Below are positions 1,274 through 51,300 of a stretch of DNA of 64,000 nt, in pieces. A model generated the notes under the pieces. The model worked only from the letters and a program-made list of their open reading frames with translations, was not told the DNA's origin and ran no database searches. The position numbers and the translations under genes were made by a program. Position 1 is the first letter of the stretch. Every line of letters begins with the position of its first letter. The DNA comes from Cystobasidiomycetes sp. EMM_F5 (Eukaryota): assembly GCA_051047955.1 (NCBI GenBank), contig JBPGPT010000007.1, positions 558,001 through 622,000 of the forward strand, written 5' to 3'.

Positions 1274-4200
1274 CTAGTCCGTATCTTCGGTCATCTTCGC
1301 GTCGACGTGTTCAGTGCTTGCGTTTTCGTTTGTCTCGGGGCGAAGTCCGTGCTGCGGGTCTGGAAAACTTATGCCGATCGAATCGAGGTATGCAAAAATA
1401 GGGGTGGCGTATTGGCTCAGCTGCACTGCGGCAGCTTCGTACCACAGCACATTCGTCAGACGCGGACCACCGCGAGTAGTAGGACGAACGGTCTCTGCTG
1501 TACGAAGTCTGAGAACTGGACTCCACTGCCTAAGCTCCATTTGATCTGTGTTCGGTATTTGCAGCACCAGGAATAGGACGAAATGACCGGGGTGTTCAGA
1601 ATCTTTGCGCAAGCAAGCTCTGCAGACGATGCCATCTTCCGTGACAAATTCCTCTCTCTTTCCCAGTACTCGCTGCAGGTTTGCGGTGACAACCTTGAAT
1701 ACAAACCTTCTGAATTTACCCTCTTCGACAGTACCAGAGTCACTTGACTTCGATCTTTTCTGCACTCGCGCTCGTAATGGTTGGCCTGGCAGGCATATGC
1801 CGTTACCTGGCATTGCGAATAGGACATGCCCATTTTGATGATTGCGCCCGTTGACAACAAGCTTGGCCGGTATCTGCCACCATTCACTTCGTATGAGATC
1901 GACCAGCTGTTTGACGGTCTGGACAGACCTCTGCTTGTCATTCGGACCCCTGATGATTTGCAATGCAGACTGCTGTCCGGAAGATGAGCTTGCTGTGGGA
2001 ACTTTTGAGTTCACGGCGTCAGAACCTATCAGTGTGGCTTTGTTCCAACGTCTGCGCTCCTTAGGCGTGACTCGAGAGGGTGGTGCGCTGCGACCATCTG
2101 GAAGCTGGCGGGAAGTCAGGGACACTGGTACATCATCTGCAAATGGCCCGATATCGTGAGTCTGCCCATTAGCAGAGAGCAATCTGCGGTGCCCGCGCAG
2201 TCGACCGAGTGTGGCCCATCTCCGGTGACACGTCAAGCATTGGTACGTTCGCCGAAAGCCTGCGCGTTGTCTGTCGCGCCGGTCCCACGCCGACTGGCAT
2301 ACCTGCGACTCGGTGTGCTCCCGTAGAGCAGGCCTGTGTGAAAATGTTTGACCACATCCACACTGATGGTGGCGCGAAATATGCCTGTGCAGCTCCTGCC
2401 GTGTAGTAAATGATTCACTGCGTGGGGGCTGTCGAAGTGCACAGTAGTCGCAAGCGTGCTCGCGTAAACCGGAATGTTCAGCATGATGATGACGATCGTG
2501 GTCATGCTTGCTCCTTGTTGTGTATCCGCAATTGTGCACATTGCAACGATAACCATCCGTTCGGCCGGTCAGACGGACAATGTCATACGACGACAGCGGA
2601 GCTGGCCGGAGCGCGTGACGCCGGAGTCTATTGCGTCCAATACGCCCACCGACGGAACTCCCGACGCACAAGCAAAGTCTAGCCAGCCGCCCCATCCTGA
2701 GAGATCGTGCGAACGTCACGGCAACCGCAGCGGTGTCCAAACCGCTCGACTCTTCCTGAACAAATGTGGGAACGGCATCGCTAGCGAGCTGCCTTGCGAT
2801 AGTCCGAGCTGTAGTCATGCGCATACCTCGTCGCAAGTCTCCGATAAACACTAAGTAATCCCGTGGGGTAGAATGGGGAGTACCGCCCAGGAGGAGCAGT
2901 TGCAACTCGGATGGAGTGCTAAGCAGAGTATCGGCACTAGGGACGGATAAGGACACTACACGTCCCGCTGCAATGGAGTCAATGAGGTCTCGGATAGCGC
3001 CGTCGGGATACGAAGGGGCTGAAAGCAAGTCGTCAAAGGTGGAGAGTGTACTGCCGCCGAAAGCGACAAAGAGCTGAGAGTCACCATCCTGCCAGACGCC
3101 CGAAATACCTTTGCGATGTTGGAGCAGCTGGTTCTGGGCATAAGTAGACGGATCTCGAGTATCAACAGAAGCACCGAACTGCTTCGACCAGTTCGAGAAA
3201 CGAACGACGATGGCATGAACGCCTCTGAAGTGCCTCCCCGCTGGAGCTGCAACCTGCATCGGCGAAGGCAGACTCTCGAACCCAATGCCAGAAGCTGGGT
3301 GGATTTTGAGAAGCACTTCTAAATCGGTTTCAAGGTGCGAGAGATTCTCCGCTTGGGTGGACAGCAGCTCATGGTGTACCACCTTCTCACCGTCTTGAAA
3401 TGTGTCCGTGCTCGAGACTGAATTGCGATCACGAGAGCCTAGAACGCTGCCTACTCCCTGTAAGCGCCTCTTGAGGAGTCCGTGCCTCATGTCCGTATAA
3501 AATTTCGATGCTTCTCTGTGTGGATGACTCCCCGGGTCCGCAATGTGAAGTATGAGAGCCCGCGCACCAAACTCGTATGACGGAAAATCTTCGTTGTCGA
3601 TGGTGTCCTCGTACAGGGGGTGTACATCTATCACAAAGTCTGGAATGCACTCATAATGAAGGCCATTTAGGTCTCCACCATCGCCCATGAGCAAATGATG
3701 GAGTGCACCCGGATCGACTAGTAGGCCATCGCCAGAAGTGAGAATCAGCCGCTTGATGGCATACTCTGCTATGAGTCGGACCAGCGAAGATGGTCTAGAC
3801 ATGACAGGCAGCGTTACATCGCACTGCTCGTCAAAGAATGCCTCGATACCACTGAGGGCTGATCGCTGTACGACAATTATCGCAATCTGCTGCATGGTGA
3901 CCAGCGGGTCGATGGCTTGAATGTATATAAATGTGGAGACACGCTGCGCATTGATGTAGTCTGTCCAGAAAGTCTCGTCCTGGTTTTGGCAAGCTGAGAA
4001 CCTGATGACTCGAACATACATGGAACCTTCAGGGCAAGGCTCAAGAGGGAGGAGATCAATTGGGGAAAGAACTGGAGACACAGAGAAGGGGGAGATATGG
4101 TTGACGAGATTGAGGAGTCTGTCAATGTCAGTGTGTGCTAGTCTGATGTAAGACCCTGGGGGATCTGTGTCCAACTGCAGACCGTCTGTGTCCGCTTGAT

Positions 4201-5730
4201 CGATCACGGGCAAGTCGCCGTCTAGATCGTCATGGTCAACTCCGAGCAAGTCAGTATCCGTTGCGTGTCCACTGTCCCTCAGATGCCGAGAGCCTGCTAC
4301 TGCTCCTTCCCTGAGAGCTTCGAAGTGACCGACCGTATCACTGCCAGATCTGTGCAGCAAGATTTCGGGGAGACTGGATGGATAATTCATCGTAAATGCT
4401 TGTGTACCAGGCTGTCCGTTATATGACTGATAGACCACGAGGCGGCGTGCGTGAGCTAGTGCTGCGACAGCAGCCCCAACCAGTGTCATGTCTGCTGCAA
4501 ACGCGCCTGCAACATCACCCTGTACGCCAGCGTCCGTTTGCAATGTATTTTCCAATTGCAACAAGTCTGCTTCGAGTATGGGAGCTTCGAGACGGATGCC
4601 ATCATGGTCATCTACGACGGAAAGCCATGCATGCTCGCTTAATAACAAGCGTATTTGCACCAGGCCTGTCTCCCGGATGAAGTCCAGAGTTCGCTGGCGG
4701 ATGTCTTGCACACGTGCAAAGTTGCCATGGATTGACAAAGCCATCGCCGCCCATCCGCACAGGCCCTCGCCGGGATTGTTTACCACGCGTGAGAGGGCAC
4801 GCTGGTCTCGGTTGGAGTACGAGACGAATCTGGGCTCGATGTCAAAGCGGGACATCCAATGCGTGGACTCCTGCCGGACGTTCTGAGCGGGAGGTGAGGG
4901 GAGTTGCGATGATCTTCCGACAAGTTGTTTGACGGCAGGAGCGATACGAGAGACGGGTACAGCTTGGTAGAGAGGAGCTGGTTGCGGCACGGGAACCCAC
5001 ATAGGCACGAACCCTCTGGAAGTTACTCGGAAATGGAGAGACGGTTCCGGAGCATCGGTGAAAAGTGCGAAGTCAGGAAACAGTGAGTGTTGCCTGTCAT
5101 CTACGTGAAAAATGACATTGCGCCCGAGTACTGAGATATATGCCGATTCAGAGTAGTAAGAAGTGTGTGCAATGCGCTAGCTCACTGTAGCTCGCTGCGA
5201 CTATCACGTCCAGTGACAAGCCATCGTTTGTGCTACTGTCTGATAAACGATAGAACACAGTATCCAGAATAGCTGATATTTTGTCATAGTCCTTGAGGTC
5301 ACCTGTAGCAGCAAGGATAATCATTGCGCGCACGTCTGAGATAGCTGGGGCAGTCGGTGATAAAGTGAAGGAAACCGGTCCAAGATCCCCACCGGGGTCG
5401 GCGTCAGGGATCCAATGGCCATATTCTGATGCGGGTCGTAGATATGGCGGCTCAAGAGTGTCATCGAGGCACAAGGAGCGAAACAAAGCATGGACCTCTT
5501 CGAGTTGCGCTTGCGCAGGGACTCGGAATTCGGAGTAAAGTGAGGAGTCAGCGTACGGAGTGTTATTCCGAATTGCCAGTCTGATACAACCAGAATAAGT
5601 GCTCTGAAGCGTTGCCGCAACATTTGACGTACACTCCTCTCAGCCATGATGGATTTCCTGGAAAGTCCCAAACATTCCGGGCAATCACGCCAGAAAGCCA
5701 AAAGGATAGCGTGACCAGAAGCGAAAGCAT
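1274..5730 (-). CDS. 1449-aa multidomain protein: degenerate OTU-like + OTU + 2x serine-recombinase-like + C2H2 zinc fingers
   Basis: Exons 5730-5633, 5580-5186 and 5130-1274 splice in frame across 52 and 55 nt GT-AG introns. OTU motifs PGEGLCGWAAMA...GHFEAL. C2H2 fingers CNVHNC..HDRHH, CDYC..HISRH, CGCG..H and CLTC..H at ~2550-2170. Confidence refers to the CDS; the recombinase call is weaker. Confidence 0.8.
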
Positions 5731-6796: not shown

Positions 6797-9347
6797 TTAC
6801 GTCCGCCAATGACGAGTGAAGCGTCCGCGCTTATGATTACCGGTGACCGGAGGCCTACGAAAACGAGGATTGTTCTGTGAGGCGCCAGACCGATTCAAAC
6901 GCGACAGCAGGGGACTGGGAGGACGTTCGTTGAACGTTGGAAACTGTCTCGGCGTCTGCACCATCGGTTGATGGCGATCTGCTAGTGCAGCAGGATGAGC
7001 TTCAGCCGTGGGTGGATGTACAATCAGGCGGTCAAGCTGCTGTCTCCACACTGTAAATTCCGTCAGTCGAAGTCTGGCAACTGCCAGAATCGACTTACGA
7101 TCCAAGTGAATGCGTCTGTCCAAGCTTTGTGGCACTTGCGCTTGCAAATCTGTAATCGCGGGGAGCATTTCGAAGCGAACGTATCCGCGGAGTGTACTGA
7201 TAGAAGAATCGACAGAGGTATCGCGAACAAGGTAGACGAAGTGACGAGTATAGAGATATGCTTCCATTTCTGCCTGAGCTGCTGACAATCCGTGCTTGCG
7301 ATGGTCTAAGAATGACTGCATCATGTCCAGTAAGCTGTAACGTGTTCACCAAGTCAGCCCCCCTTCCCTTACCGTATGATAGCCAGAGGACTCACGTTAC
7401 AGTCTTCAGCATGCGAGCTCGGTAGGCATCAGCAGCCAACATTCCGGTCCAATCTGCAAGCTGTTCAGCGTTTGCCGAGTTGGGCATGCGAATGTTCTCG
7501 TGAAGGCGGGCCAAGACTTTGGCGACGTTGCCAGCCACATTCCCTCCAGGAGCCTCATAACACTGTGCCAGAAGTAGCAAAAGGTGATGGTTTGCCCTGT
7601 CTTGAGCAGTATCTTCGGGTGTCGGAGCGGACATGTGATGATCCAACAGCAATCTGTATGTCATGGCTGCTTGAATTTCCATTCTCATACTAGTATCCAG
7701 AGAACCGATACGGGCTGCTGTCATTGCCTTGGCTGCGTCGAGGTCGCCTTCACCAACTAACTTTGCGCGTAATTGTTCGGTAAACAAGGCGAAAGACTGA
7801 GCAAGGGACAAGGAGTGCGGCCCTGCTTGGAGAAGAAGCTGTAGGTCTGCTTTGAGATTGAACGGCTTGACTGCCGCCATGGAAGCCAAGATGGGTTGCG
7901 ATACGAATGCTGCCGTGGGGGACACATTAGAGATGAAAAGTTGGGGAACTGTATCACGCGAATGCGAAGCAGCATGTGCCCGAGATTGCGACAGCGGTGT
8001 TGATGCCGATTGGCCTAGAATAGCATGCTGCGGGGAGTTCTGCTGGAACGATGCCGGATAGCCGCAGGACCGTTGAGGAGATTCCGATGGCAAGATGGCA
8101 CTGTTCGATACCGTATTCAAGCGCACATAGTCTTGAGTTGCCAATTGCACTCCTCCCCGGACAAAGTCCGCTTTAGAGTTGCCGTGGACATCTTTCGGCG
8201 AATCTCGTTCATCGAAAACCGGACGTCCTAGGGAAGCGGCGGAAGACTGTGGTGGATACTGGGAAGTAGATTGCGGAATAATGTGTGCTGCTCCTGAATG
8301 GGCATGCTCCATGACATTGCCCAGCATTTGCATCGGATTACCGGTTTGAGCGGATTGAGCGGGTTGCTGAATCGCACCGGCCATTCCTGCATGATTTAGG
8401 ATGGGGAGGTTGAATGCAGGTTTAGGATGTTGTCCATGCATACTTGACTGATTTGACAACTGCAAGGTAGACTGTCGAAGGTTGGACGTCTGTGCGGGAT
8501 GACGATTTCCGCGTTTGAAAGCCATGACATCAAGCTGTGTAAGCTGAAATCATTAGCCGGTGTAGAGTATGGCGTGCGACTCGGCGCCTCACCAGTTCTG
8601 AGTGTATTGCTCCCGCGGATGCCCAACGATGTTCTGCTCTATACGGAACTGAGACCACTTCGAGAGCTCTGAGAGCGCTGAGAATGCCGATAGCATCAGG
8701 CTGAGATTTCAGAAAGACTATCAAGATGTTCATGGGCTGTGTGCCTGTAATCCTCTCAATGCGAGAACGAGCTGAAGCAAGAGCTGCGGAGTATGCTAGT
8801 AGGCCGTTTTTGAAGTAGCTGACCAGATCTTTGGCATTGACGACGCCCGGCTACGACACTCGTCAGTAGGATTGCGGAGCGCGCTATCGCCAACTGGAGA
8901 TGCTCACGGGCACAGACAAAATGACTCCGGCAGTATAACCGAGGCGTCGAAATGTCTCATCCAGGCGGGCCTTCAATTTCATTCAGTCAACGTCCAATGT
9001 AAAGACTACTAACGCGCGTCTTACATGCGCTGGCTCAACATTGATGCCAATGACCTGCTCGTGAAAGGACATGAAATTACGGGGCGCATCGTCGTGAGAC
9101 CACTCAACGAAAGCTGCAGGCATGAGATTAGCGCACTAGAGCGCACAATTGCCGTGCATAGGCAGAGGGACATGCCTGTTTCCCAATTAGTAGTCGAGTT
9201 CACGGAGCGGTACGAACAGACTGGACCCCATTGAGCGGCATAGTTACGTAGCCCGCCTTGTTCGTAGACAGAGCGTCCGACGTCGGACTGGGTACTCAGA
9301 CGCACGCGAATGTTGTAGATAGAGAGCTGCCTGGTAGGACAATGCAT
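6797..9347 (-). CDS. 755-aa divergent RRM-like protein with Q/S/P-rich linker, helical C-terminal region and Arg-rich tail
   Basis: Six exons (9347-9176, 9113-9025, 8970-8908, 8850-8593, 8543-7396, 7334-6797) are phase-compatible and join ORFs 7392..8525 and 6797..7324. RNP2-like PTRQLSIYNI and RNP1-like ETAFVEW. Intron 1 needs a GC donor. Confidence 0.7.
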
Positions 9348-9722: not shown

Positions 9723-11314
9723 TTACGAAAAGTGAGCGAGTATAGCATGGACGGCTGCCTGCCGTGTTTCATGGCGATGTACATGTGGTTCCAGACCCAT
9801 GTAGTCCACAAAACTGTGCCAGTTGCGTTCGCCGACAGCATGAGCACGGTCAGATGGCACCTCTGCACGCCGAACGAGAGAGAGTATTAATCCCCTGCCT
9901 TGACCTTGTATGGTAACTTCCTTGCCGCAGCGAGAAGCACGATGGATATACGAGATGGCATCGGTAGGGAGGTCCCAATTTATGATGAATCGCAGTCCGA
10001 CAGGATTGAGTCCACGATGTGTGATGTCGCTGGATACCAAAATATGATTCGTCTCCACGGACTCGTTAAACGCTGCCCAGGCATGCCGATTGTGCTCCTG
10101 GCCTTCACCTCGGTGGACGACCTCACAGCCCAATTTCTTGCCTAGGGCTCTAATAGCATTCTTGACGCGATTGGCAGTGTCTTTGCGGTAGCAGTATATG
10201 ATGACTTTGGGCAATTGGTTGTCGAATAGAGCACTCAGAAATGCCATCTTTTCATCATGGAGGGCTTCGTTGTCTCGTTCTCTGCCTGTCGTATTCAAAC
10301 GGAGATAGTGGTGATCGCGACGAAGTAGAGCATCGAGTGTTTGCGGGTTCACTACGATTGTTGGAGCGGCGGCAGTTATGCAGGACATCATTGTCTGTAG
10401 CTCATTGGTTTTGGCAGTTGCAGCTGTAAGAATAACTTGGACTTGATGACGGACGGGCAGCAGCCAAGCAACTTTTTCTTCGTTTTCGCCGTTCTTGTCC
10501 GCTTCGTCAAGCCAAACAACGCCATAGTCATCGGCGGAAAATGCTGGAGTTGCATGATCAAAACCGAGGTGATAGGCTTTGCCCCAAGTGCCTAGCACAA
10601 AGCGAGCGATGGATGCCTCCTGATGCATACGGGCGCGATCCAATCGACTAGCGTCACCGTGTATGAGAGCGCTGGGAATGAGCAGTCCTTGCGAGAGTCT
10701 TTCGAAGTCACGGTAGGCCTGCTGTGCGAGGAGAATGGTGTTGAATATGGCGATGACACGTAATTCGGGGTTAGAGACGAGTAGCGCTATGATTCCAATC
10801 AGACTGTCGTAAATAGAAATCATTAATAAAACTCACAAAATTCCCCATCATTTACTTACCAAGCTGTCGTTTTGCGCTGCTTTTCTTCAGCCACTACAAG
10901 GAGTGATTCACCAGACACGATGCGCGGAATGACCTGCTCTTGCAGCGGTGTCATGCGCGGCCAATTCTGCTCTGCGATATTGAGAACCAATAGAGGCGAA
11001 ACGGGGGCCAACAAAGCCGAAAAAGTGGCATGAGACTCAGGGTTTAATTGCACAGTGTTCGGTGGCATAACAAATGGAGGAGGTGGCATGAAGTCGGTGG
11101 CTGGGTCGATGGCAACGCCATGTTGCGGTGATCCTGGCTGAGAGCCCTGATGTGAACCTTGTTGGAAGCCTTGGTTAAGAGCAGGATTATCGTTGTTATG
11201 ATCATCTGCTGTAGGATTAGGTAGCTGAATATTCTGTGCAAGCCATTCCGCGCCGCTCGATGCAGCAGCGGGCGAGTGCGGCTGAGAATGTGTGTGATCC
11301 TGCTGCATGCTCAT
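9723..11314 (-). CDS. 511-aa divergent DEAD-box RNA helicase-like protein
   Basis: Exons 11314-10860 and 10803-9723. Q-motif MTPLQEQVIP, I AEEKQRKT, Ia NTILLAQQ, Ib TWGK, II LDEAD, III AAT, V DITHRGLN, VI YIHRASRCGK. Confidence 0.88.
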
Positions 11315-11510
11315 AGCGAGGGTAGATGGAGATGTAGAAAACCGAGCTGAACGACGACTGAAATAGTTGAGCAATGGGAGTTGCGGTAAACTGCAAAAGC
11401 AAGAAGTGCGTTGGCCGTCAGCCACCCTTTGCTGTGCTAAGCCCAAGCTACGCACCAGGTGCAGGCGGATTGTAAATCGGACGTCCGCTTCGCACTCAGT
11501 CGTCAAGACG

Positions 11511-11590
11511 GAACGGTCAGTAGCTTGCTAGTTTAGTTTCAACGTTGTCGGAACGGTCAGGAGCATGCTAGTATAGTCTCAACGTTGTCG
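11511..11590. repeat. Two tandem 40-bp direct repeats (36/40 identical)
   Basis: gaacggtcagtagcttgctagtttagtttcaacgttgtcg vs gaacggtcaggagcatgctagtatagtctcaacgttgtcg; each contains the palindrome CAACGTTG. Confidence 0.9.
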
Positions 11591-12045
11591 GGCAACGGAC
11601 GGAGCTGAGATGGCGCTGAGATAACGCTGGCATACGACTGAGAGAGAGCTGAAACGTGGCTGACAGGGAGCTGAATGAGAGACGCCTTACCCACTGCAGG
11701 CGACCAAGCAGACATCGGATACCGGAGAGCGCCTTCGAGCTGGATCGTTGGAGGCTTTCGCGGCTGTCCGACAAAAGCGAAGCGGAACGGTATTAGAATT
11801 CCGGAGTGCAGAACCTCGAGCCCAACGTAAGCTGAGTAAGCTGCGTCCAGCGTGCAGGAGCCTATGTCGGCGCTGGGTGTCACCTCGGTAGTCCTTGTCG
11901 GACAAGATGCACGAGCTGCTTCTGCGGTAAGGTAGTCGAGCGCGGTCGCCCTCTCTTTGCTCTGCTGTCAAAGCACTTTCAGCTCAACTCAGCTCCCTCA
12001 GCCGTTGCTCCAATCTCCTCACTTTCAAGCTTTCCACAAAGCACG

Positions 12046-12506
12046 ATGAACCCAGCCGACACCACTTTGGCAAACATTCTGCTCGCAGTGTTGGCGCGCA
12101 TCGACGCGCTGGACGGCGCGATGCAGGCGCAGGCTGCACAGCTGCAGCTGTTAATCGACCAGCAGCGTGAGTCGGCGTTTTGTGCTAAGCGTCCGACGTC
12201 GACGGTGGCTGACTGCCGGACATCTCGTCAGAGACTGGCCCAGCCGGAGCACTGGCTGTGACCAACGCAGAGCCAGCCAATAGCGGATGGGATGATGCTC
12301 CAGCTGTGACCAATGCAGAGCCGGCCAACAACGGAGGTGATGACGCTCCAGCTTCGACAAGCGCAGAGCCAGCCAACAGCGGATGGGAGGATGCCCCAGC
12401 TTCGACCAGCGCAATGCCAGCCAACAGCGGATGGGAACAGGCTCCAGCCGGACCAAGTGGAGGCAGCAGTGAGGGAGCAGGATGGGTTCCGTTCAAGCGC
12501 TATTGA
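12046..12506 (+). CDS. 131-aa protein: N-terminal coiled coil + acidic GW repeats
   Basis: Exons 12046-12166 and 12232-12506 join in frame across a 65-nt intron (GTGAGT, GCTGAC branch point, CAG). Motifs SGWDD, SGWED, SGWEQ and AGW. Confidence 0.8.
12255..12446 (+). repeat. 4 x 48-bp coding tandem repeat (unit ~AVTNAEPANSGWDDAP)
   Basis: Units start at 12255, 12303, 12351 and 12399; many differences between units are synonymous in the + frame. Confidence 0.92.
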
Positions 12507-13408
12507 CGGGCACAGATGGTGCTAAGCCCTAGGTGCGGTGGTCAGAATGTCGGACAGTCCAGCAGTTTCAGACGACAGGGTGACTCTTCAGCTCGCTGTT
12601 GATGTATCGGGAATGTCGATTCGAAGTAGTCTGTCCAGGCTTAGCAGGATGCCCTGGCGGTCCACTCATCTTTTGATTCTCTGCTCCAGAGATCATCCTT
12701 TTGCACCGTATGAGGCCTATACTATGAGCAGACTGTCCTCTCCATATACCTTTATGAGCTTTCCATGTAAATCGCAACTTGGTTGCAAGATATCTTTCTT
12801 CCTCCTGATCCCGGGCCGCCAAGCTGAGAAGACCACTCCCAAAAATACAAGGATGATGGTTGCTGAGCTTCGTTAGCAAGCCTTGCACGGACTCTATCAC
12901 CTGTGCTTGACCAACTATGCGATATTGCCTCCTACAACACTACGACAATCTACAGCTTGAATGAAGACGCAGAACCTGACGGCAGACCAGCCGACTGCGG
13001 TGGTACATTCTCCTTGCGCTTCTTTCCAGTTAGCGCACTCTTTGCCGCCTTGCCTTTTCCTACGACTGTGACTCCTCGCTTGCCAATGAGGCTGTTCATC
13101 GTCTTCTTTGTGGCGCTTCTCCCAAAAAATACGTGACAGCTACAAACCACGTGCCAAACGTCGTCCGCACGTCAACGACGGGTACAGACCGCGGTGAACC
13201 GCTTGCCGCAGCTCGTCTTTCTTCCAAATCATTTAATAATTAACACGACCACAACATGGACAGCTGCAGATCTAGATGAGAACGCTAACTTCTCTGAACA
13301 CTTCTCTTCAGCCCACTGTGCAAACACTGTACCTGCACACCGTTCCTTGTGGTGACGCATCCCGCGACTATCGCCAACCCAACTTCCTGCTAATCACCAG
13401 TTTCAAGC

Positions 13409-15483
13409 ATGACCAACCTGAATGGCTTCTCTATCTTTGGCGGCATTGTCTTCCTGGTCGTCAGTACGTGGGCACGTGCATGTTTCGTGCCAAGATACTG
13501 AGATATTGCAGTCTTTCTGGTCATACATCCCATATCTTTCCGTTTGCCATTGTCGTGGTCTAATGGACTCGTTGGGCTCCTCGTGAAACTTCGCCTGATA
13601 GATCCCCGTAAAGACGCCCAGGCAGCGGTACCCTTAGAGCCCATCTCGGAAAACGCTAGCAGAGACAAGCTAGTGGAACAAGCCATCTCAACCAGGAAAT
13701 CAGTCACTGGCAAACGACTTCGGATTACAATAAATTTGTCATCTGCGCCTCTTCTTGGGGTACTACTCCTATTGATAACCACCACTATCGGTGGAGAGGA
13801 AATAGCAAAAGGTATAGCTGGCGAAGGAGGCTCCAAACCATACGACGTACTCGTGCTGTTTATATCGCTGGCGTATATAGCGACGTCACTAGACGCGACG
13901 GGCGGGTTGCGTTACCTCGCTTTCCGAGTCGCGCTACGGGCAGGCAGTGGCACGCAGCTGTATTCTTATCTGTATCTTTTCTTCTTCGCCTCCGGTGCTA
14001 TCATTGGCAACGACCCAATCATTCTGTCTGGTACACCTTTCCTGGCGTACCTCACCCGTGTTAGCGGAATCACGCCGCCAACAGCCTGGATATATGCTCA
14101 ATTTCTAGCAGCGAATGTTTCTTCTGCTGTTTTGGTCTCCTCTGTAAGTAATCCTGCGTGATCTCCGACTACCAAAGCTACATGGGGCTAACTGTACGGA
14201 CAGAATCCGACGAACGTATTGATATCGGGGGTAAGGAGCTTTCAGCCTATGGATAGCGCCTTGGGGAGTCTGACATCGTACCTTGCCGTCACCGCAGGCA
14301 TTTGGTCTGAATTTCCTTAGCGAATTCACAAAGTACACCGTCCTACCTTCCTTTGCTACGGGCATAATTATCTTCCCCGTCCTTCTACTTGCTTTCAGAA
14401 ATAACGCGGTCATACACTCTATACATCCCAACGCAGAAAGCCCTTTGATCCCACACAAATTCGTAAAGCCCGATGTGAAACCCAAAGAGGCATTGATCGA
14501 CCCGTCTGGAGCCATTTTTCACACATGCCTCCTGTTGACTACATTGGCAGTATTGGTTGGCACTTCGTTCCTAAAGGGCGTAGAAGTATGGATGATAACT
14601 GCGCCAGCTGGAATTGTGGGGCTACTCAGAGACATTGCTTATGATGTGTCGATGAGGAGGCAACACAGCAAAGATCGCAAAAGCCCTTCACCACCGCCAG
14701 GGCGCGACGATGCGCAGAGCAGATCGGATAAACATACAGGATCAAGAAAAACACTACCTTCCGTATGGAGGAACGCCAAAACGCGATTCCCGACTACTTG
14801 CGTCACTCTTTCCAGACTGCCATGGCCGCTGCTTCCCTTCGCCATCGGCATGTTTATTTTGGTACGCTCGCTGGACCGCCTTGGATATATATCGATATTC
14901 GCAGGCTGGACTGCGAAAGCTTGCACCAGTCCCGCAAGCGCCATTTTCTTCGTGGGAGGAGTCGTAGCATTCGGTCTATGTCCACTGTGCGGAACGGTAA
15001 GATTTGTCAAGGCATATATATACGGAAGCAGCTGATCGTAAGAGGTGGCATGGTTCAGAATATTGGCGCGACCATTCTCGCTGTAGAAATTCTAGCAAAT
15101 GAAAATTTTGCGAATGCTCCGCAGGTGCAAGCAGATCCTCGCATTTTGAAGGGCGCAATCTACGCAGGTAAGAGTAGCGTCAAGTATATCCAGCACCGTG
15201 CAGGGCTAAGACTGTACCGCAGTCGCGATTGCAAGCAATACTGGCGCACTTGTAACGCTTCCATCCTCCTTGGCGGGCTTACTGTGGAGTCGGATATTAT
15301 CGCAGAAGGGTGCGTTGTATCAGTGCTTGCACCCATCCACTCGTTCGTACTGATGTAGGGTACTTTGCAGGCATTCGCATTACGCAACTGAACTTTTCCG
15401 CTATCAATTTGATACCTGCATGCATTGTTACCTTCGCAGCTCTAGGTATCGTGCTGATCGAAGTATTGTATTGGACATCGTAA
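13409..15483 (+). CDS. ArsB/NhaD-superfamily (arsenite/anion) permease
   Basis: Multi-exon, many TM segments; PYDVLVLFISLAYIATSLDATG, GNDPIILSGTPFLAY, LVSSNPTN and LPWPLLPFAIGMFILV. Confidence 0.82.
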
Positions 15484-15718: not shown

Positions 15719-18700
15719 TCAATCACGCCAAGAGAAATGACCAACAAGGCTGAAATCATCGAATTGGCTCGCGATCACTCCAAAAGCCCCCTGACCATCT
15801 GCGCGCAGGTTTGCCACCTCTTGATAGGATTGAAAAGGCAAAAACCTTGTCGTCGCTGCCCGCGGAGCCTCACAATCTATCTGCGGTCGACTGGACGAAT
15901 GATGACTCTGTTGCGCTGATCCCTCATTTAGAAAATGGCTAATATGCCGCCAAAGTAGGAGGAGAGACAGCTCCGCGAGGTCTGTAAAGAAATACGTGCG
16001 GTAAGCATAAGCGACACAGTGCAACAACATATGCGCACGAATCGATGACAAAGCACGATGCCGTAAAACCTTCCCGATATTCCGCAACGTGGTCAGAACG
16101 CCTATGCGCCTTGCGTATTCATCAGATACCTCGTCTTCGGCATCCTCAAACATGTCATACTGCGAAAAGTGCTCAGCTACACTCTGCTAATTCACCAGCA
16201 GAGGCGACTCACCAAGTCGAGATCGGCAAGACTGGTGTCATCGAAATTAGAGATGCGGAAGTTCACCTCGGACAGCTGCTGGATTCTTGCGCTCATCGTG
16301 CTTGTGGTGTCCGACAAGAACACCATGGCACTGCGCAGATTGGGCAACGGTGCGATAGGTCGACTAGTCGGTGAATCGTCCAATCTCAGGCTCGGTAGCC
16401 AGACAGGTTGGAAGACCGAAGATCCTGAAAGGACGATAAACATGGTATAATATTGAGCTTTGCGGGAAATAATCTCACCGCTTTGCTTTGTAACATCACG
16501 CATGTATTCCAACGTGCACATCTGCAAGCTTTCAACAAACTCTGTCAATCGTTGTCGGAAGACAGTAGTCGGATGATTCGCATCTGCCGGCAGGCTCTTC
16601 AGATAAGGCGTACGATAGCTACGAAGCTCATCACTCACCTGGTCTGATAAGTTGAGTCTCTGCCAGTTCCTCCGCGTTTGAAGGTTGAACAGATTCCAAC
16701 CAGTCTTGTTCCGCCATGACGACCGACGACAGGCTCAGTAGAGCCGAGTGTAGACCGCCGAAGCCCGTGGGAGAGTACTGAGATACGCTAATAAGTTATC
16801 ATCGGAGCGAGCATGCAAAAGACACCTACTAGTTCTTCCTGTGAAACTACACTTAGACTCGTCCGCATGAGCTGGGTAATTAACCGCGCTTCCTGAAGCA
16901 TTTGCAAAGTGGGTGTAGCAGCAGTGGTAAAGAGAATCCCACGGAGAGCGTCTCGTTGCGCCAGAAGGAGAGCCAGGATCTGTGTCGTGGCAGAATTCAG
17001 TACAAAAAGCAGCTTCATGACCAAAGCACCTTACCTGCCGAGCTGCAGTTGAAGCGGTGGATCCACATCTCATCGCGACGGCCGCTGCGAGCTGTAAGGC
17101 GGGTAACAATATTTGATGCGACCGCTGAAGTAAGGGCGGCACGAACGCATCGTACTCTGTTGAAACATCAGTCGCAGAGCCTGGAGACGGGACTACATAC
17201 GCAGCTCACCCATGGCGTCCGCTAGTCACACAACGCTCAAATTTCAGCGATGGGCTGCGCCTCATACTACGTCGACTTACTGCGGGCGTAGGCATCGATA
17301 TCAAAGAAGGAACAGTGGGAAAGGCATATCAGGACGCGGGCGTCCAGTAATCTTTCCGCGCCCTCCTTGGTCGCTGCCAATCTCGTCAAGAAAGCCACCT
17401 TAGCTTCGTAGACATACAGAGCATTTAGCGACTCTGAAAAATAATCAGCTTTTAGCATGCGGGTCCACAGATTGCTTCTCACCTGGGTCCGGCATCAGAG
17501 TACTGAGCAACTGAGCTTCGTTGTCCCGGATACTTTGTACGAAAGCGTGCACATAGCCTTGTTTGCTTAGTACAGACGCGAAACGGCTTCCACTCATGCC
17601 CCTTCCAGCAAGCCGGCACAGGCCATCCAGTACAGTGTAAGCAACGGTCTGCCATACTTCCGGCCCAGAGCTGGCGTCTAGACACACAACCGGGAGTAAG
17701 CGCTCCAGAGAAGACTGGAGGAAAGCTAGCATGCCAGCCGCAAACGGGCTTTTTGATGTCGCAGGCAAGGAGCTGCCCACAGTCGATGACCCGTCTCCTG
17801 TCAAGCCGCCATCCAGATTCGCCTGAGGAAACTCAGACAGAGACAGCTCCGGACCATCATGGGCCATCACACTTGAAGACACCGCAAGTGGGCTGGAGCT
17901 CAAGTGCAGAAATTGGAGCAGAATCGCGTAGAGGTTGCCACGGACAGATGATGTCAAGCCGGGTCTGATGATCGCTCGGACCACATTGTGCAGCACCGGC
18001 AATAGACGCTCAGGAGCTAAGCCTGCCCCACTCGGAATCTTGCCTGCTTGCTGACGTAGATTGGCTTGCCGCAACTGTCCCATCACGAGCAGTGCTGCAC
18101 CTGTAAGTATATCGTAGATCGTGCTGTCTAGATCTTCGCCCGTGCGGTTTGGGAGTAGGAGATCCAGAAGGTCAAGGAAGAGAGAGCTGGAATCGCCGGC
18201 AGGCAGTAGACTAGATGCCCGTGTTAGCGTGATATCCAGCATTATCCGCCACGCCTTTAGGGCGTTCGTGCGTGCGTATTCAACTTCTCTTCTGTTGTTC
18301 TCTATGACCAGATTCTCCAGTATAGCCCTCTCTTGGTCGTCAATGTCTTCTTGGCGCTGTTGACTGTTGTGGCTGTTATACAACTCCCGAGCTGAGCCGA
18401 GAAGAATGCGCACAGCAGTAATATCATATACTTCGCATCCGCTCGATACTTCGCGTAGACAAACGTGAAATGGTATTTCGCTGAAGGGCTGGGTGATTGA
18501 TGTAGAGTTGATAGTGATACTGTCTTTCCAGCTGAAATCGAGAGCCGTAAATATTTCGATCATGCGTGGTAGGCCCTGCTCTGTAGAACCCCCGAATTTG
18601 TGGAGATCGGGGTCTACGTTATCGCTCGTTGTGCCGTATAAAGATGCCAGCAAACGCAGGGCTTGATCAGGAAGATCTTTGTCGGCTAGATTACTCAGCT

Positions 18701-21700
18701 CCAGAGCCAGTGTCTCCAAGATCCAGGCAGAGGCTTGCAGAGTCGCGACAACATCTCCTACAGCAGCATGTGCTAGACTGCCGTCGGCATACGTCACGGT
18801 GCCCATTACATCACCGGAGCTCGATGGAATGGGTAAAGGCAGAACTGCAGACTGCCGCAGGAACTGCTGCCGAGATCTCATATATGTGTTCATGGCTTGA
18901 GAGGTGTATTCGTGCATGCATAATTGCCTGACGAGGCGATAAAGCTTCTCTCCAAGCAATGGCGATTCGGACAAGATGTTTGGAAGAGCTTGATCAGCCT
19001 CGGCGCCGACTGTATCATCATATATACGTTCCAAGTAGTCCAGAACTACGTTTAAGCAGCTGACAGGCTGATTCGTAGAGTTATTAGCATGGACAATTTG
19101 TAGGTCGTCCATTCTGACGCCAAGCTTGAAACCTAAGAGAAAGTGGGCAACGTTGGGAGCTTCGCGGCCAGGTTGAGTATTGATGAGGAGCAGATCCATG
19201 ATTGAGAGTTTTATGACTGTATCAATCCCGCTGGCAGTCTGAGGGGTGGCCGAGGCATCGTCTTCGGTAAAGACGCTATCGTCAAATGCGGGATCGCCAG
19301 CCAGCCTGTCTACGAATCCCTTCAAAATAAGAGCACCTTCGTTGCTAGCATCAATCAATCCCGCCAGCCGGTTGATCTTTGTTTTGTAAACATCCTTGAA
19401 GATGTCCGTAGTATTGAAGGAAGTTGAATTGGAAAGGTACGACATTATGCGTACCACTGTCAGCCCAATAGCCTTTGAGCGCGTACTGTTCACCAGTACA
19501 GCTATATCCGCAATAGCTGGGGAGTTATATAGCATGTGCAGGTCGAGCGGCTTGATTTGGCGAAGGACGTGCCGCTGAGCGCTACTCAATGATTGTGCAT
19601 TCTCCCTGGAGCGTGATAGATGTCAAATCAGCGTGACTCGGCGAGATTCGAGGGTCTACATACTCCAATATCGGTAAGATGACTTCCAAGAATAGTTCCT
19701 GCATCGCGAAGGTTCGCTCGAGTATTCGCAAGGCTCGCAATACGAGGTGTATCCAACTAGACGTTGAGGAAGAGGCATCTAGCTCTGCAAGGCTACAGCT
19801 CGATAAGCGAATAATTTCCTGGAGTAGAGGTGATCCAGACAGTAAGCGTGTGATGATGTCATATCCGGGATGTATCGTCAGTATAGATATACTGTGCCCA
19901 TGACTCTGATTGTCTCCGTCGTAAGGACGTGGTACATACGCCTCTAGATGTAGGCCAGCGAGCGCACGTTCTACATACGCGAGACACCGCTCCATGACGC
20001 TCCACCGTTCCGCCGGCTGCTCATAATCGCGGGAGACAGCTCTCAAGAGGACTGTGTCTATAACATACACAGTATATGATTCGACACCGCGACTTGCCGC
20101 CCGTTGAGGCGCTCCAAGGTCAGGAGGGATGTATTTCTGAGCAGATTCGAGTTGCTGAAGGCGGCGAGATGCAGCGTTTATAGAGACATCATGATTGAGA
20201 CCAGTTGTGCCACCAATCATCGCGGTCAATAGCGAGACCAATGCGGTAGTACCACCATAAGACCGGTTGCGGGGCTCGACCATCTCTAATTCAACACTAA
20301 GGGGCATAGGCGCAGTTGGTGCATTGGAAGTATTGCTGCCAGGCGAGCGAGTCGCAATCAGCTGATTATCTTCTACCAACGTCCACAATTGCCTGAGTGC
20401 TGCCGTTCCCGCTGGGCCTGGTAAAGCATCTTGCGTGTAAGTCACAATCGCTAGCGCTCGAAGGGTGTCGAGCAGTGCAGCCTTTAGTTCCAGATAAGTA
20501 GGATTGACAATGAAGCGGAACATGATTGTCATCACGCTGCGTTCTCCGTTGAAGTATGCCCTGGCTGCTGGGGAGTGAGTTGCTGTATTGCGTACCAATC
20601 GAAGAAAGGCTTTCAGTGCTGCCAATTGTTCTCGAACTTCGGTTGCGTCTTGCTGTGATCTCAAATTCGATAATTCGTTGGCAGAGCTTTCAAACGCAAA
20701 GAACAGATCGAGCCAAGATTGACTGAATAAGGACCGGCTCGCAGTTTGACCATCGCTGAATTTGGTGAAGGCGATGAATGCTTCCCCTGCGCACAAATCT
20801 CCGGTGGCCATCGTTGCGAGCATGTCAAACAAGCTACGCAGCCGATCGTCATGGCTGGTTGCAGCCCACCGGAGGAAGGATAACAGGCTGCTGTTGGGCT
20901 CCCAAAACTTGAGCGTACTGTTCGCTCGGTCTTTGTATAGTAGGGTGATGAAGTTGAAAAGAGCTTCGACGGTACTAGGGTGGGGTGGAGTCGGGCGCGC
21001 ATCTGTCGAGTTTACACTCAAGCGTCGACTGCGAGAATGAGCGCCGGAGGGTCTTTTTCGCGGATCTTCTTCGACATAACGAACTTCTTTGAGTGGCTTC
21101 ATACAGAAGAAGATGATAGCTTCGACAAAAGCGTCAAGTTCGCGCACTACCGAGTCCTCAAAGCTTGCTTCGACAGTTGCCATTTGTGACTGCGAGCTAA
21201 TCTGCGAGCCTGCAGTCCAGCAAATATCTTCCAAGTGGTTCGCCGGCTTCTTGAAGTACAATAGACCGTTTGTACACAAGTCGAAAGCCGAGTACATTGA
21301 ATCTTTGAGAATCTCTTCCACCCGTACGTCGCGAATCGTGTGTGAGAAACCTCCATTCATCTGGCAAAGAAACAGGCACCAGGCTACCTTTGCAAGCGGT
21401 TGCAAGGGTGAGAGTTTCCAATTGGCGCCTGTCATCACGAATGATCCAGCATCACGAAGCATGTCGGAGCTGTGTGCTAATGTGGAATCGCCGCTAAGAA
21501 CCGCCAGCAGAGTAGCCGCGAGGACTGGTGTGACGAGATCCTGAGAGTCCTTTGTAGCGCACTTTGTGATGAATGCATACGAGTCTTTTGCAGAGAACAG
21601 CCCGCCTGCGGCAGCTACTCCATATAAGATGTTTGCCAATAGCCGCCGTTCCTGGGTATGCGCCTCCCGCTGCTGGGCGCACAGTTCATCACTGAATCGT

Positions 21701-22485
21701 GCTGAAATTGTTCCGCTGGGACCACTTTGCGTATTGACATTGTTGGGGGCATTGCTGCCAGGAATCGATTTTGCTACAGTATCCTGCCTGTCTATTTCGT
21801 CCAATAAAATTCGGATCCACGTTCGTGATTGCCCATCGGTCCATGTCACAAGGTCGCTGGCATAAGTACGAAGCATGTCTTGAACGCTCGTTTCCAAGGC
21901 TTCAGTGTATTCCGGATCACTCAGATATGCGAATAAAAGTTGCAGGCAGACTAGCCAGTCGCGTCGCTCGCCATAGTATAGGTATATGACATTGTCGTCT
22001 TGCGGACGATCTGCCAATGGTCTTCTGCCGCCGAGAACGAGAGCTATCAAGCTGGCTGCATATCGTTCGGAAACATTCAATTGTCCCTGCAGTAACCACA
22101 TCAATGTCCGCGTTCCGGGATGGAAGATTTCGGTCGACGTGTGCTCACAGAGACGTTGGCGACTTCTTGCTTGAAGTGGTCGATGCTTCCAGTGATATTC
22201 CACCGGCTTGACGTGCCGTACGGTGTCAACCATCCTGTAACAAATCGAACAACAACGGTCAATGTTACTTCATCTGCTGTGGTAGCCAACTACTGTACCC
22301 TTGTCCAAGTCTGCAGAACTACCGGCCTCGCCAGGCTTTGGCAATTGCAGCGGCGCTCGAAAAGCAGGTCTGCTCCGTTCCAGCTGGGCCTTGAGTGACT
22401 GGACGTCGACATTTCCACTCGGGAGCGCCTCGAGAGTAGCCCGCAACGAGCGAAAGTGCTGCAGACTCAGCTCGCCGGGTGCCAT
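15719..22485 (-). CDS. NUP192: Nucleoporin Nup192/Nup205 family (3' end approximate)
   Basis: ~2000-aa helical protein over ORFs 22270..22485, 19582..22233, 17445..19589 and smaller exons; ELEMVEPRNRSYGGTTALVSLL, PNVAHFLLGF and ALYVYEAKVAFLTRLAATKEGAERLL. Confidence 0.85.
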
Positions 22486-48372: not shown

Positions 48373-51300
48373 TCACTGCGGCTGGAGGCCCAAGGAATCC
48401 ATCAGCATGCTCCACTCGTCCCCGCCCAGAAAAGACGTGACCAAAGGATTGCCAGGCTGACCGATGCCCGTCAACATCTCCGAAAAGCTCGAGGATGGCT
48501 GGTCCTGTAATTGCGGCATACCGTTGGGCGGCATCTGCAAATGCTGTGGTAAGACAAGATGCTGTGATTGCACCTGAGATTGTGGGACAGAGGTGGTCGC
48601 CATCCCCGGTTGCAGGGTCGGGTGTACGTAATTCATGCTAGCAAGCGGAGAGTCGGCAGAGTGGTTCAAGGTTGCATGACCCATAAGAGAATGAGAGAAG
48701 CGAGGCATAGAGCCCACTGGCGGAAAAGGCGGCAAGGATTGATTAGATTGAACAGCTTGGCTCGACGTTGGGTAGACCGCCTGATTCCTGCCATTCGGAG
48801 ACTGGTTCAAGGCACGATCAAGCTCTGGCTGACGCTGCTGCACCTTGACGGTGGCTGTAGCTAGCATTTGGCCAGTCGCTGTTGCCAAAAGCTGTCGCAA
48901 GACCCGGCTGTGGGTCAAGCAGGGATGTCCAGCATTTGGGGCGGCCATCTCGAGAAAGTCGGAGGCTAGTTCAATGACACGAAAAAATTTGCTGTAGAGC
49001 ATAATTTGTCTACCGGACGGCCCATATCTTTCCTGGGGTTTTACCGGAGTCTGAGGTGACACGACGATGAGATTGCATCGCATCAGATCAGCAGCCCGCA
49101 GCTTGGCGAGAAACATTGCCGAGAAACACAGTATGACGCATATGGCCGTATCCACGGCAGTACGGATGTGCCTGGCGTGGTCGACGTCGGGCTCGAATGG
49201 CTTGTACACAGGGAGCCCGTCCTTCCAGTACTCCGGCTGTTCGAATTTAGGCACGCGACGCCCATTGTCTGTTCTCGCTGCCGTAGTGAGGTACATAATC
49301 ATCGTCACTGCTGACTCTACAGCAATCTCCAAAAAGTGTCCTTCTTCCGTGTTGAGGGTCAAAGCCGCCGTTGCTCCAGCTTCCTGGGCAGCTTTGTTGC
49401 GTACAGACCATGTTCGATAGACGTCAGCATTGATGACAAGGCGGTGAAAGGGTGCGATAAATTGCGTGACGAAAGCGCCTTCGACCGCCAGGCGCGGATA
49501 CTGCTGATACCAATACTTTGTAATCGAATCTAGATCACCGTTTGCCCTCGCTAGTGCCGGTATATCTGTCTTGTCATCTTCCGAAGCACCATGAAATGTA
49601 CCGTAGACAGCCGAGACTTCCAACAGCGCAGAGAGCTCGACATCTGTCGCAGCATCACCAATTGCGGCAAATGATCGAGTCACCTGCAGCGTTTCGGCAA
49701 TGTCGAAGCTTGCACCTCGTCCATTTTGCATGCAGCCATGACAATCGACAAAACACATCCATAGCCATAGACGCAGCCTTCGCAAAGTAGCCGGAGATCG
49801 GTCTCCACCTAGAAACAGCCTTGGCGTTGCATATAGCTGATTGACGCGAGCTGCCCGACCGACGATGCCGGCTAAAAAGTATGTCGTCGAATTGTTTAGC
49901 TTCGCCTGGTTTTGCATGTGAGCAAAGTCGGTAAAGACCATTCCTTTAGGCCGTATCCGTGGCATCTTCCATATGATGCAAATGGCTAATCCGAGCACAA
50001 ACTCGTCGTCCAACTCACTCGGCTGTGGGGACATGATGATTGCTACCGGTCAAATTGACACGTTAGCTGAGAAATGCGCCACACAGAGCTTTCACTCACG
50101 CGCAAGCGTCTCATTGACGAGGGATACTAAATTCAAATAAAGTTGTAATCCAGCCTCATCGTTGGGTGCTTCGAGATAGTATGTAGATACGCAGAGGATG
50201 GCTCCGAAAAGGAGAGGGCACGAGACGCGTATCCTGTCGGGATCATCCAAATGACTAGGCACAATACCATGCACCCAGAATCGACAGTGGTCTACGAAGC
50301 TATTTTTGCACATCAGCTTATGTCCGTCGCAATTTGATTGTTTTGCTGACAATGCAAAGTATCGCCTGGCTTGTTCCATAGTCATCAAACCTCTCGATAT
50401 AGCATCAGGACTGAGTGAATTCGGCTGTTGCAGGTTTTGCAGCCCAGCAGAGCCTGGAGCACCAGGTATGGATGGACCTTCCTCTAGCCCTTGGAAGCTT
50501 TCCACTATAGTGCTCATGGGGTTACCCATTCTGCGATGGCTCGCCGCAGCTGTAGCGTCTGGCAATCCAAGATCCAGCTCATCGAGACTCGGCAGGGCAC
50601 GACCCCGCTTTGCAGATCCACTGGAACGATGTGCATAATCTGAGTAGCGGAGGTAATCTTCAATGTGGGCTGTTTGTGATGTTAGCTGCTCAAGCCTAGT
50701 CCGATTGAGGCGGGTCAGCTCTGCGTATTTGCGAATTACAAGCGAGCGTCTCACTTGTTCAGTATAGTCTGGACAGTATCTGGACCGAGAGGAGCGGCGG
50801 AGTAGCTGGTAGGCACTGAGTACTGCGACGAGCCATCATCCGGCGCTTTCCGCTTTACAGCCGTTCGCTGCGGAGCATCTGTGAATATGCATTCTAAGTT
50901 GTATCTGCACCACATATGGTCAGTGGAGAGTTCATATCAGCCCGAACGTGCTCGTACAATTCGCATCTACGACAGGGTATCCTCGATGGGCCTGTGATCG
51001 CCAGAGATGCATTCAGAAAGCCTCTTCAGACATACAGGCCGGTGGAAGACGACCCACCATCGCATCGTTGTTTCGTAGATCTGCCTATGACGATGTAACA
51101 TGGCCGCAACAGTCGCGAGTAGTAGAAACACAGTATCAGTTCCGAACCCGCATTTCATTGTCAATATGTCGATGAAGGAGAACGGATTACGAAGCGTGGG
51201 GATATTACAGGCTCAGCGTGAATCTTCGCAAACGACGTAGGCATGTCTAGCCGTATGCCGATATAGAGCTTGACGCTTGACGCACGTCCGAGCCCCGGGA

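Follow-up and report, generated by a model that had tools for sequence, protein, structure and literature searches.

Does the 48-nt tandem array located at 12255..12456 (+) of the stretch analyzed here belong to a small protein-coding gene, and, if so, what would the tryptophans that it encodes bind? The stretch, hereafter the window, comprises 64,000 nt (positions 558,001 to 622,000 of contig JBPGPT010000007.1) from the yeast Cystobasidiomycetes sp. EMM_F5 (Pucciniomycotina, Basidiomycota), and the candidate gene sits in a 2-kb gap of it, with a divergent DEAD-box-like gene on one side and a CitMHS-type transporter gene on the other. The first-pass annotation had read the locus as a two-exon microprotein that would serve Argonaute as an oligomeric and multivalent adaptor or decoy; on this reading, its GW sites would fill the PIWI Trp pockets. 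Gene structure, coding signal, product anatomy and candidate Trp receptors are considered in turn below.

Gene structure and coding potential

Exon 1 (12046..12166, +) begins with ATG and counts 40 codons in all, followed by the first base of a CAG (Gln) codon, and its translation (MNPADTT...LLIDQQ) is predicted to form an amphipathic heptad helix. The 65-nt intron (12167..12231, +) has the donor GTGAGT, a branch site CTGAC at 12209-12213, the A of which lies 19 nt upstream of the acceptor, and the acceptor CAG. Exon 2 (12232..12506, +) supplies the other two bases of the Gln codon split by the intron and 90 further codons up to the TGA stop (12504-12506), encoding a disordered acidic tail rich in A/G/P/S/N. 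These canonical donor, branch and acceptor signals restore a single frame from ATG to stop, connecting the ATG-started frame with the sole plus-strand frame that is open across the repeat. Joining the coordinates computationally gave a product of 131 aa (13.07 kDa, pI 4.05) that has no Cys and whose basic residues are 2 Arg and 1 Lys; the splicing of two ORF fragments into 131 aa, as originally proposed, was thus reproduced on the sequence at every coordinate. Left unspliced, the frame of exon 1 reads through to a stop at 12259-12261, i.e., a 71-aa ORF.

Short introns of the form GTRAGT...CTRAY...YAG also break the long ORFs of the window, which includes Nup192, Xrn1-type, PheRS, oxysterol-binding and CitMHS genes and is fungal in appearance. 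The strict intron pattern was found 17 times in the window vs. 7.4 ± 2.8 times in Markov shuffles, and the matches other than that of the candidate fall mostly at junctions of long ORFs. In 150 simulated windows with 1049 chance introns, seven of these introns were preceded by an ATG at a distance of 40 codons or more and followed by 90 or more open codons, so that an arrangement like that of the candidate gene arises by chance about 0.05 times per window.

Transcription starts in fungi are preceded by pyrimidine tracts, and a pyrimidine-rich stretch (11950..12045, +), interpretable as a leader or core promoter, runs up to the start codon of exon 1, with A at −3 (AGCACGATGA). Its C+T content is 68%, vs. 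49% window-wide, a value reached by 0.3% of 96-nt windows. Other gene models were tried and rejected. An upstream extension of exon 1 (11836-12045) has no in-frame ATG and a codon score of −0.069, and an upstream intron at 11927-11982 would leave the ATG at 11907 out of frame. A three-exon model, in which a donor GTGAGG at 12469 is joined to an acceptor at 12532 in the ORF 12526-12876, stays in frame but has a poor branch site, and the codon score of its last ORF (0.033) is non-coding. Two short ATG frames lie upstream of the gene, one within a 31-codon stop-to-stop stretch (11840-11935, ATG frame 11864-11935) and one of 7 codons (MHELLLR, 11907-11930), and both would act as uORFs in a transcript that begins 5' of them. 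The Rfam search of 11000-13500 returned no match at E ≤ 1.

Ten long ORFs of the window served as the training set for a codon log-odds score. It amounted to −0.069 for the leader, +0.339 for exon 1, −0.04 for the intron read-through, +0.227 for exon 2 and +0.033 for the downstream ORF (12526-12873), so that coding-like codon usage is restricted to the two exons and absent from leader, intron and downstream ORF. As controls, in-frame windows of the training genes scored 0.170 ± 0.078 and 384 untrained open stretches 0.018 ± 0.099; beside the latter, by a comparison of our own, the spliced CDS (0.261) would place second. Predicted from the sequence, the locus is probably a real coding gene.

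Database searches and annotation status

Searches with the two exons recovered no homolog among 169 word-sharing candidates at E ≤ 0.01. For exon 1, the sole match among 79 candidates was the unspliced 71-aa ORF of the locus itself. Only two matches were obtained from 1.84 billion cluster representatives (P0003 and P0004), and both were rejected as relatives, being Trp-less tandem-repeat proteins matched through repeat composition; for the tail, ESM Atlas gave no usable match and Pfam no family at E ≤ 1. Out of 265 pattern matches in a metagenome scan, a single one passed tblastn (L001), and it was dismissed as a chance match: its PPANNGGDDA stretch lies within a 301-aa bacterial-looking ORF, next to which the contig, of high GC content, carries an ABC-ATPase-like ORF. 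On our reading, these two ORFs are candidates for an FtsX/FtsE-like pair.

Although the protein collection covers the neighboring DEAD-box-like gene of the same genome through its annotated product, neither exon of the candidate occurs in any of its entries, and the depositors' annotation apparently did not call the candidate gene. The lineage is poorly sampled, as the helicase-like neighbor finds only itself (see below), so the missing homologs say little either way.

Repeat organization and predicted structure of the product

Tandem Repeats Finder resolved the array into 4.2 copies of a unit of 48 nt, or 16 aa, at a score of 243 and with 80% matches. The consensus of the unit is A[VS]T[NS]A[EM]PAN[SN]G[WG][DE][DQ]AP, and no second copy of the array was found elsewhere in the window. 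In the sense frame the copies read AVTNAEPANSGWDDAP, AVTNAEPANNGGDDAP, ASTSAEPANSGWEDAP and ASTSAMPANSGWEQAP. GW is present in copies 1, 3 and 4, each time with acidic residues flanking the Trp, and copy 2 has GG in its place (TGG to GGT). Another GW belongs to the C-terminal GWVPFKRY, which together with the stop occupies 12481..12506 (+), one codon off the repeat register and in the context AGWVPFKRY. In total, Trp occupies residues 60, 92, 108 and 125 of the product, always preceded by Gly, and the corresponding GW sites (tail residues 18, 50, 66 and 83) all lie within the predicted disordered tail. The three GW sites inside the array go back to a single ancestral GW and are not independent events. 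Differences between copies in the sense frame amount to 16 synonymous vs. 24 non-synonymous codon pairs, a larger synonymous share than in the other plus frames (7:43 and 4:38).

For exon 1, AlphaFold2 run on the single sequence predicted a continuous helix over residues 3-39 (mean pLDDT 96.5), and L/I/V/M/F fill 9 of the 12 a/d positions in the heptad register that fits best. The tail, in turn, was predicted with a mean pLDDT of 57.9 and no secondary structure; its 90 residues include 20 Ala, 12 Gly, 11 Pro, 10 Ser and 7 Asn, as well as 11 Asp/Glu and 2 Lys/Arg. The anatomy described by the first-pass annotation was largely borne out: the amphipathic heptad pattern of the helix is confirmed, the GW sites do lie in a small-residue, acidic context (A/G/P/S/N-rich tail, pI 4.05 for the product), and the counts of four 16-aa repeats and four GW hold, with the correction that one of the four full copies has no GW, the fourth GW being that of the C-terminal tail. 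From its sequence, the heptad helix would likely serve as a docking or self-association element.

Alternative explanations

The array could instead be a non-coding 48-bp minisatellite within a long divergent promoter region, the open frame of which happens to be joined, through an intron-like pattern, to an ATG frame farther upstream. Over the length of the array, four of the six frames contain no stop, and the exon 2 frame is partly open because of the repeat; the variable columns per codon position (4, 4, 8) are uneven to a degree that is not significant (chi-square ~2), homologs of the exons were not found, and the candidate is missing from an annotated protein set that includes its neighbor's product. 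Moreover, with about 7 chance intron patterns per window, the ~0.05 chance arrangements per window are not negligible when many windows are scanned. Chance would, however, have to account for a codon score that goes up exactly at the ATG, down in the intron, up in exon 2 and down past the stop, for a repeat period divisible by three, for a pyrimidine-rich leader with A at −3, and for a non-repetitive exon 1 that scores 0.339 and is predicted as a very confident helix; we consider this main rival, the absence of a gene, doubtful. Coding from the opposite strand, the repeat then being exonic in a gene on the minus strand whose product reads (GASSHPLLAGSALV[TE]A)n, would draw on the antisense frame at 12185..12499 (−), which is open over 104 codons and in which the copies (GASSHPLLAGSALVTA, GASSPPLLAGSALVTA, GASSHPLLAGSALVEA and GACSHPLLAGIALVEA) encode nearly identical proteins, being better conserved than in sense (a ratio of synonymous to non-synonymous codon pairs of 32:13, compared with 16:24). 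The codon score of this frame is 0.212, above those of seven same-phase antisense windows without stops, taken from known genes, which score 0.039 ± 0.105 and reach 0.203 at most, but the antisense and sense frames have their third codon positions in common, and the antisense signal is thus partly borrowed. A TAG stands directly upstream of this frame, the first ATG, too late to be usable, comes only at about codon 91, none of seven relaxed minus-strand intron candidates starts or ends within 12023-13271, inspection of 12500-12900 by eye shows no credible donor, and no Pfam match passes the cut-off (DUF6668, E 0.082). The repeat substitution pattern alone is no proof of sense-strand coding; the sense model was kept because the antisense frame has neither a start codon nor a splice route, and we give minus-strand coding very little credence. 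The reading that we favor is a small, lineage-restricted, unannotated two-exon gene with a helix and a repeat tail, with a probability of roughly 0.45, a figure slightly discounted for the mode of action.

If this two-exon gene is accepted, the nature of its product can still be read in other ways. It might be a small secreted or cell-wall protein rich in Ser/Thr/Pro/Ala repeats, with LANILLAVLA as a signal peptide: residues 8-17 are hydrophobic and followed by a small-residue site, and the A-, P-, S- and T-rich tail, with KR near the C-terminus, would resemble those of O-glycosylated fungal wall proteins. The n-region is, however, acidic and by eye carries no positive charge, the hydrophobic run spans just 10 residues and is embedded in an uninterrupted helix to residue 39 (pLDDT 96.5), and the product is without Cys, so that secretion would seem highly improbable. 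The features of alpha-pheromone precursors, con-6/con-10 and LEA-like proteins were also used for comparison, and all three identities were set aside, as the repeats are not separated by Kex2 sites and Pfam returned no match. In favor of the Argonaute adaptor or decoy stands the composition of the tail: of its 90 residues, 58 are W, G, N, S, A or D, and only 3 are L, I, M, Y or C. This matches the preference given by Karlowski et al. (2010), who rank W and G first and N, S, A and D next among the residues favored in WG/GW domains, L, I, M, Y and C being least expected; the residues were counted directly rather than via the scoring matrix of that paper. Human AGO2 is described as having three evenly spaced Trp pockets, and surveyed Pucciniomycotina have Argonaute genes (2.25, range 2-3; funRNA, Table 1). 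The divergent neighbor is DEAD-box-like, and plant helicases with Ago hooks exist, SDE3 reportedly being one. A Trp pair has to lie at a suitable spacing to span Argonaute pockets, and the 16-32 residues between the GW sites could bridge separate ones. On the other hand, Pfam-A includes an Ago_hook model, and the tail matched no Pfam family at E ≤ 1 and shows no sequence or profile relation to known Ago-hook families. No RNA-silencing domain or RNAi gene was found in the window. Orthologs that could show the GW sites to be kept were not found in this poorly sampled lineage, and within the protein the Trp is lost from one of the four full repeat copies. GW pairs in biased repeats are, furthermore, a documented class of false positives, Karlowski et al. 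(2010) describing the motif as very frequent in random sequences and hornerin, with eight GW, as a false positive. The Trp-pocket sites themselves "remain remarkably variable" in fungal AGO-clade proteins according to a 2025 NAR analysis. An Argonaute adaptor or decoy, as suggested by the sequence, would accordingly be a long shot.

Possible mode of action and comparison with known tryptophan-motif proteins

For the two-exon gene, the most likely mode is that of a multivalent short-linear-motif scaffold; the sequence analysis itself supplies its exon-intron anatomy, the coding-like statistics and the predicted helix and disorder, and from these we infer expression, oligomerization, Trp docking and the partner. 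The tail would have grown through tandem duplication of the 16-aa unit, each unit presenting one Trp in a G-W-acidic context surrounded by Ala, Pro, Ser and Asn. The amphipathic helix of ~37 residues would dock or self-associate, and the disordered tail of ~90 residues would carry the Trp motifs, so that exposed tryptophans, 16-32 residues apart, could enter the aromatic pockets of a partner. Provided that the gene is real, there is about an even chance that the Trp residues act as docking motifs. The two best-documented Trp receptors in fungi are the PIWI pockets of Argonaute and the pockets of Not9 (Caf40) in the Ccr4-Not complex; if the tryptophans dock, Argonaute would be an unlikely partner, Not9 an equally unlikely one, and something else would probably be bound. 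Not9 is as a receptor at least as plausible as Argonaute. Many of the residues with which its aromatic pockets bind are invariant across eukaryotes, the Trp motif of S. pombe Puf3 engages these pockets, and Trp-pocket residues of Argonaute and Not9 are named in PMC12477606 and PMC12819147.

The established Argonaute platforms, i.e., the Ago-binding domain of GW182/TNRC6, S. pombe Tas3, and plant NRPE1 and SPT5L, resemble the candidate in having reiterated GW in a disordered stretch that is rich in G/N/S/A/D/E and poor in L/I/M/Y/C, and in both little is conserved in the repeats beyond the GW pair. The candidate differs from them in that it has only four GW in a 13-kDa product with no effector domain, and in being Ala/Pro-rich rather than Gly/Ser-rich. 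The GW mimics of pathogens (SPMMV P1, TCV P38 and HopT1-1) likewise place few GW on a small or unrelated protein; TCV P38 is said to bind Argonaute in this way. These mimics are, however, viral or bacterial and act on a host, whereas the candidate is a yeast chromosomal gene with an intron and ordinary flanking genes. That few GW sites suffice for Argonaute binding is reported for SPMMV P1 and for Pseudomonas HopT1-1 in PMC2904775 and bioRxiv 10.1101/215590. Biased repeat proteins of the hornerin type share with the candidate the low complexity and the origin of GW copies by duplication of one unit, but in the candidate the repeat is joined to a well-formed predicted amphipathic helix and the Trp flanks are acidic in three repeat copies. 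The ligands of Not9/CNOT9 (the silencing domain of GW182, TTP, and the DFW motif of S. pombe Puf3) insert a single Trp from a disordered, multivalent region into aromatic pockets, and of this the candidate has only the sequence precondition, a predicted-exposed Trp in a predicted-disordered tail. Known Not9 ligands are RNA-binding adaptors, whereas the candidate has no RNA-binding domain and its motif is G-W-D/E vs. D-F-W. Kinesin W-acidic and further Trp-based motif classes exist; the consensus patterns of the LIR, Pex14, KLC W-acidic, AP-2 WVxF and delta-COP Trp motifs were set against the candidate by eye, and none of these motifs is claimed.

A more specific proposal can be built on the four Trp hooks and an oligomerizing helix, namely a minimal GW protein of recent birth from a minisatellite, which would cluster or titrate Argonaute or bridge to Ccr4-Not via Not9, and which would possibly be co-regulated with the divergent, equally lineage-specific DEAD-box-like gene and its degenerate Walker A motif. 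We hold this to be improbable in the extreme; to our knowledge, no GW partner has been described for Pucciniomycotina. As an object, the candidate is of a known kind, an orphan disordered repeat protein with candidate short linear motifs, and as an orphan prediction its value is that of a candidate for expression confirmation, not of an RNA-silencing finding. If expressed, it would be a clean case of a small gene overlooked by standard annotation, and would indicate that a multivalent Trp-motif scaffold can arise simply via tandem duplication of a 16-residue unit beside a helix. Should Argonaute or Not9 be bound, GW-type multivalent recruitment could further be studied on a minimal and tractable protein, in a fungal lineage for which no comparable case is known to have been examined.

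Genomic context

The DEAD-box-like gene (9723-11314, −) gave weak Pfam matches (DEAD, 2.3e−08; Helicase_C, 4.6e−15), and its ORF is identical over 359 of 359 residues to KAL7008432.1, a hypothetical protein of Cystobasidiomycetes sp. EMM_F5. At E ≤ 1e−10, this protein finds only itself among 6062 candidates from a collection of 5.8 billion proteins. It keeps the DEAD motif (LDEADK), has a Q/P/H-rich N-terminal region, and reads AEEKQRKT in the Walker A region (consensus AxxGxGKT), TAAT at motif III and HRASRCGK at motif VI, when set beside the consensus of DEAD-box motifs. Judging by these motifs, the gene may be a lineage-specific, possibly ATPase-dead helicase paralog. Between it and the candidate lies a 40-nt tandem duplication (11509-11591, +; 2.1 copies, 90% matches).

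Three more open frames of the window, at 1274-5176 (−), 7392-8549 (−) and 48373-50049 (−), encode 1300, 385 and 558 aa with no Pfam match at E ≤ 0.001, and suggest further lineage-specific genes in this poorly sampled yeast. Nup192 (17445-22269, −) is represented by two overlapping open frames (19582-22269 and 17445-19622), their overlap indicating that either an intron or a change of frame is located around 19582-19622. The Nup192 fragment matched one solved chain only (4knh_A, E 2e−09), and the ESM Atlas search identified it as a eukaryotic nucleoporin.
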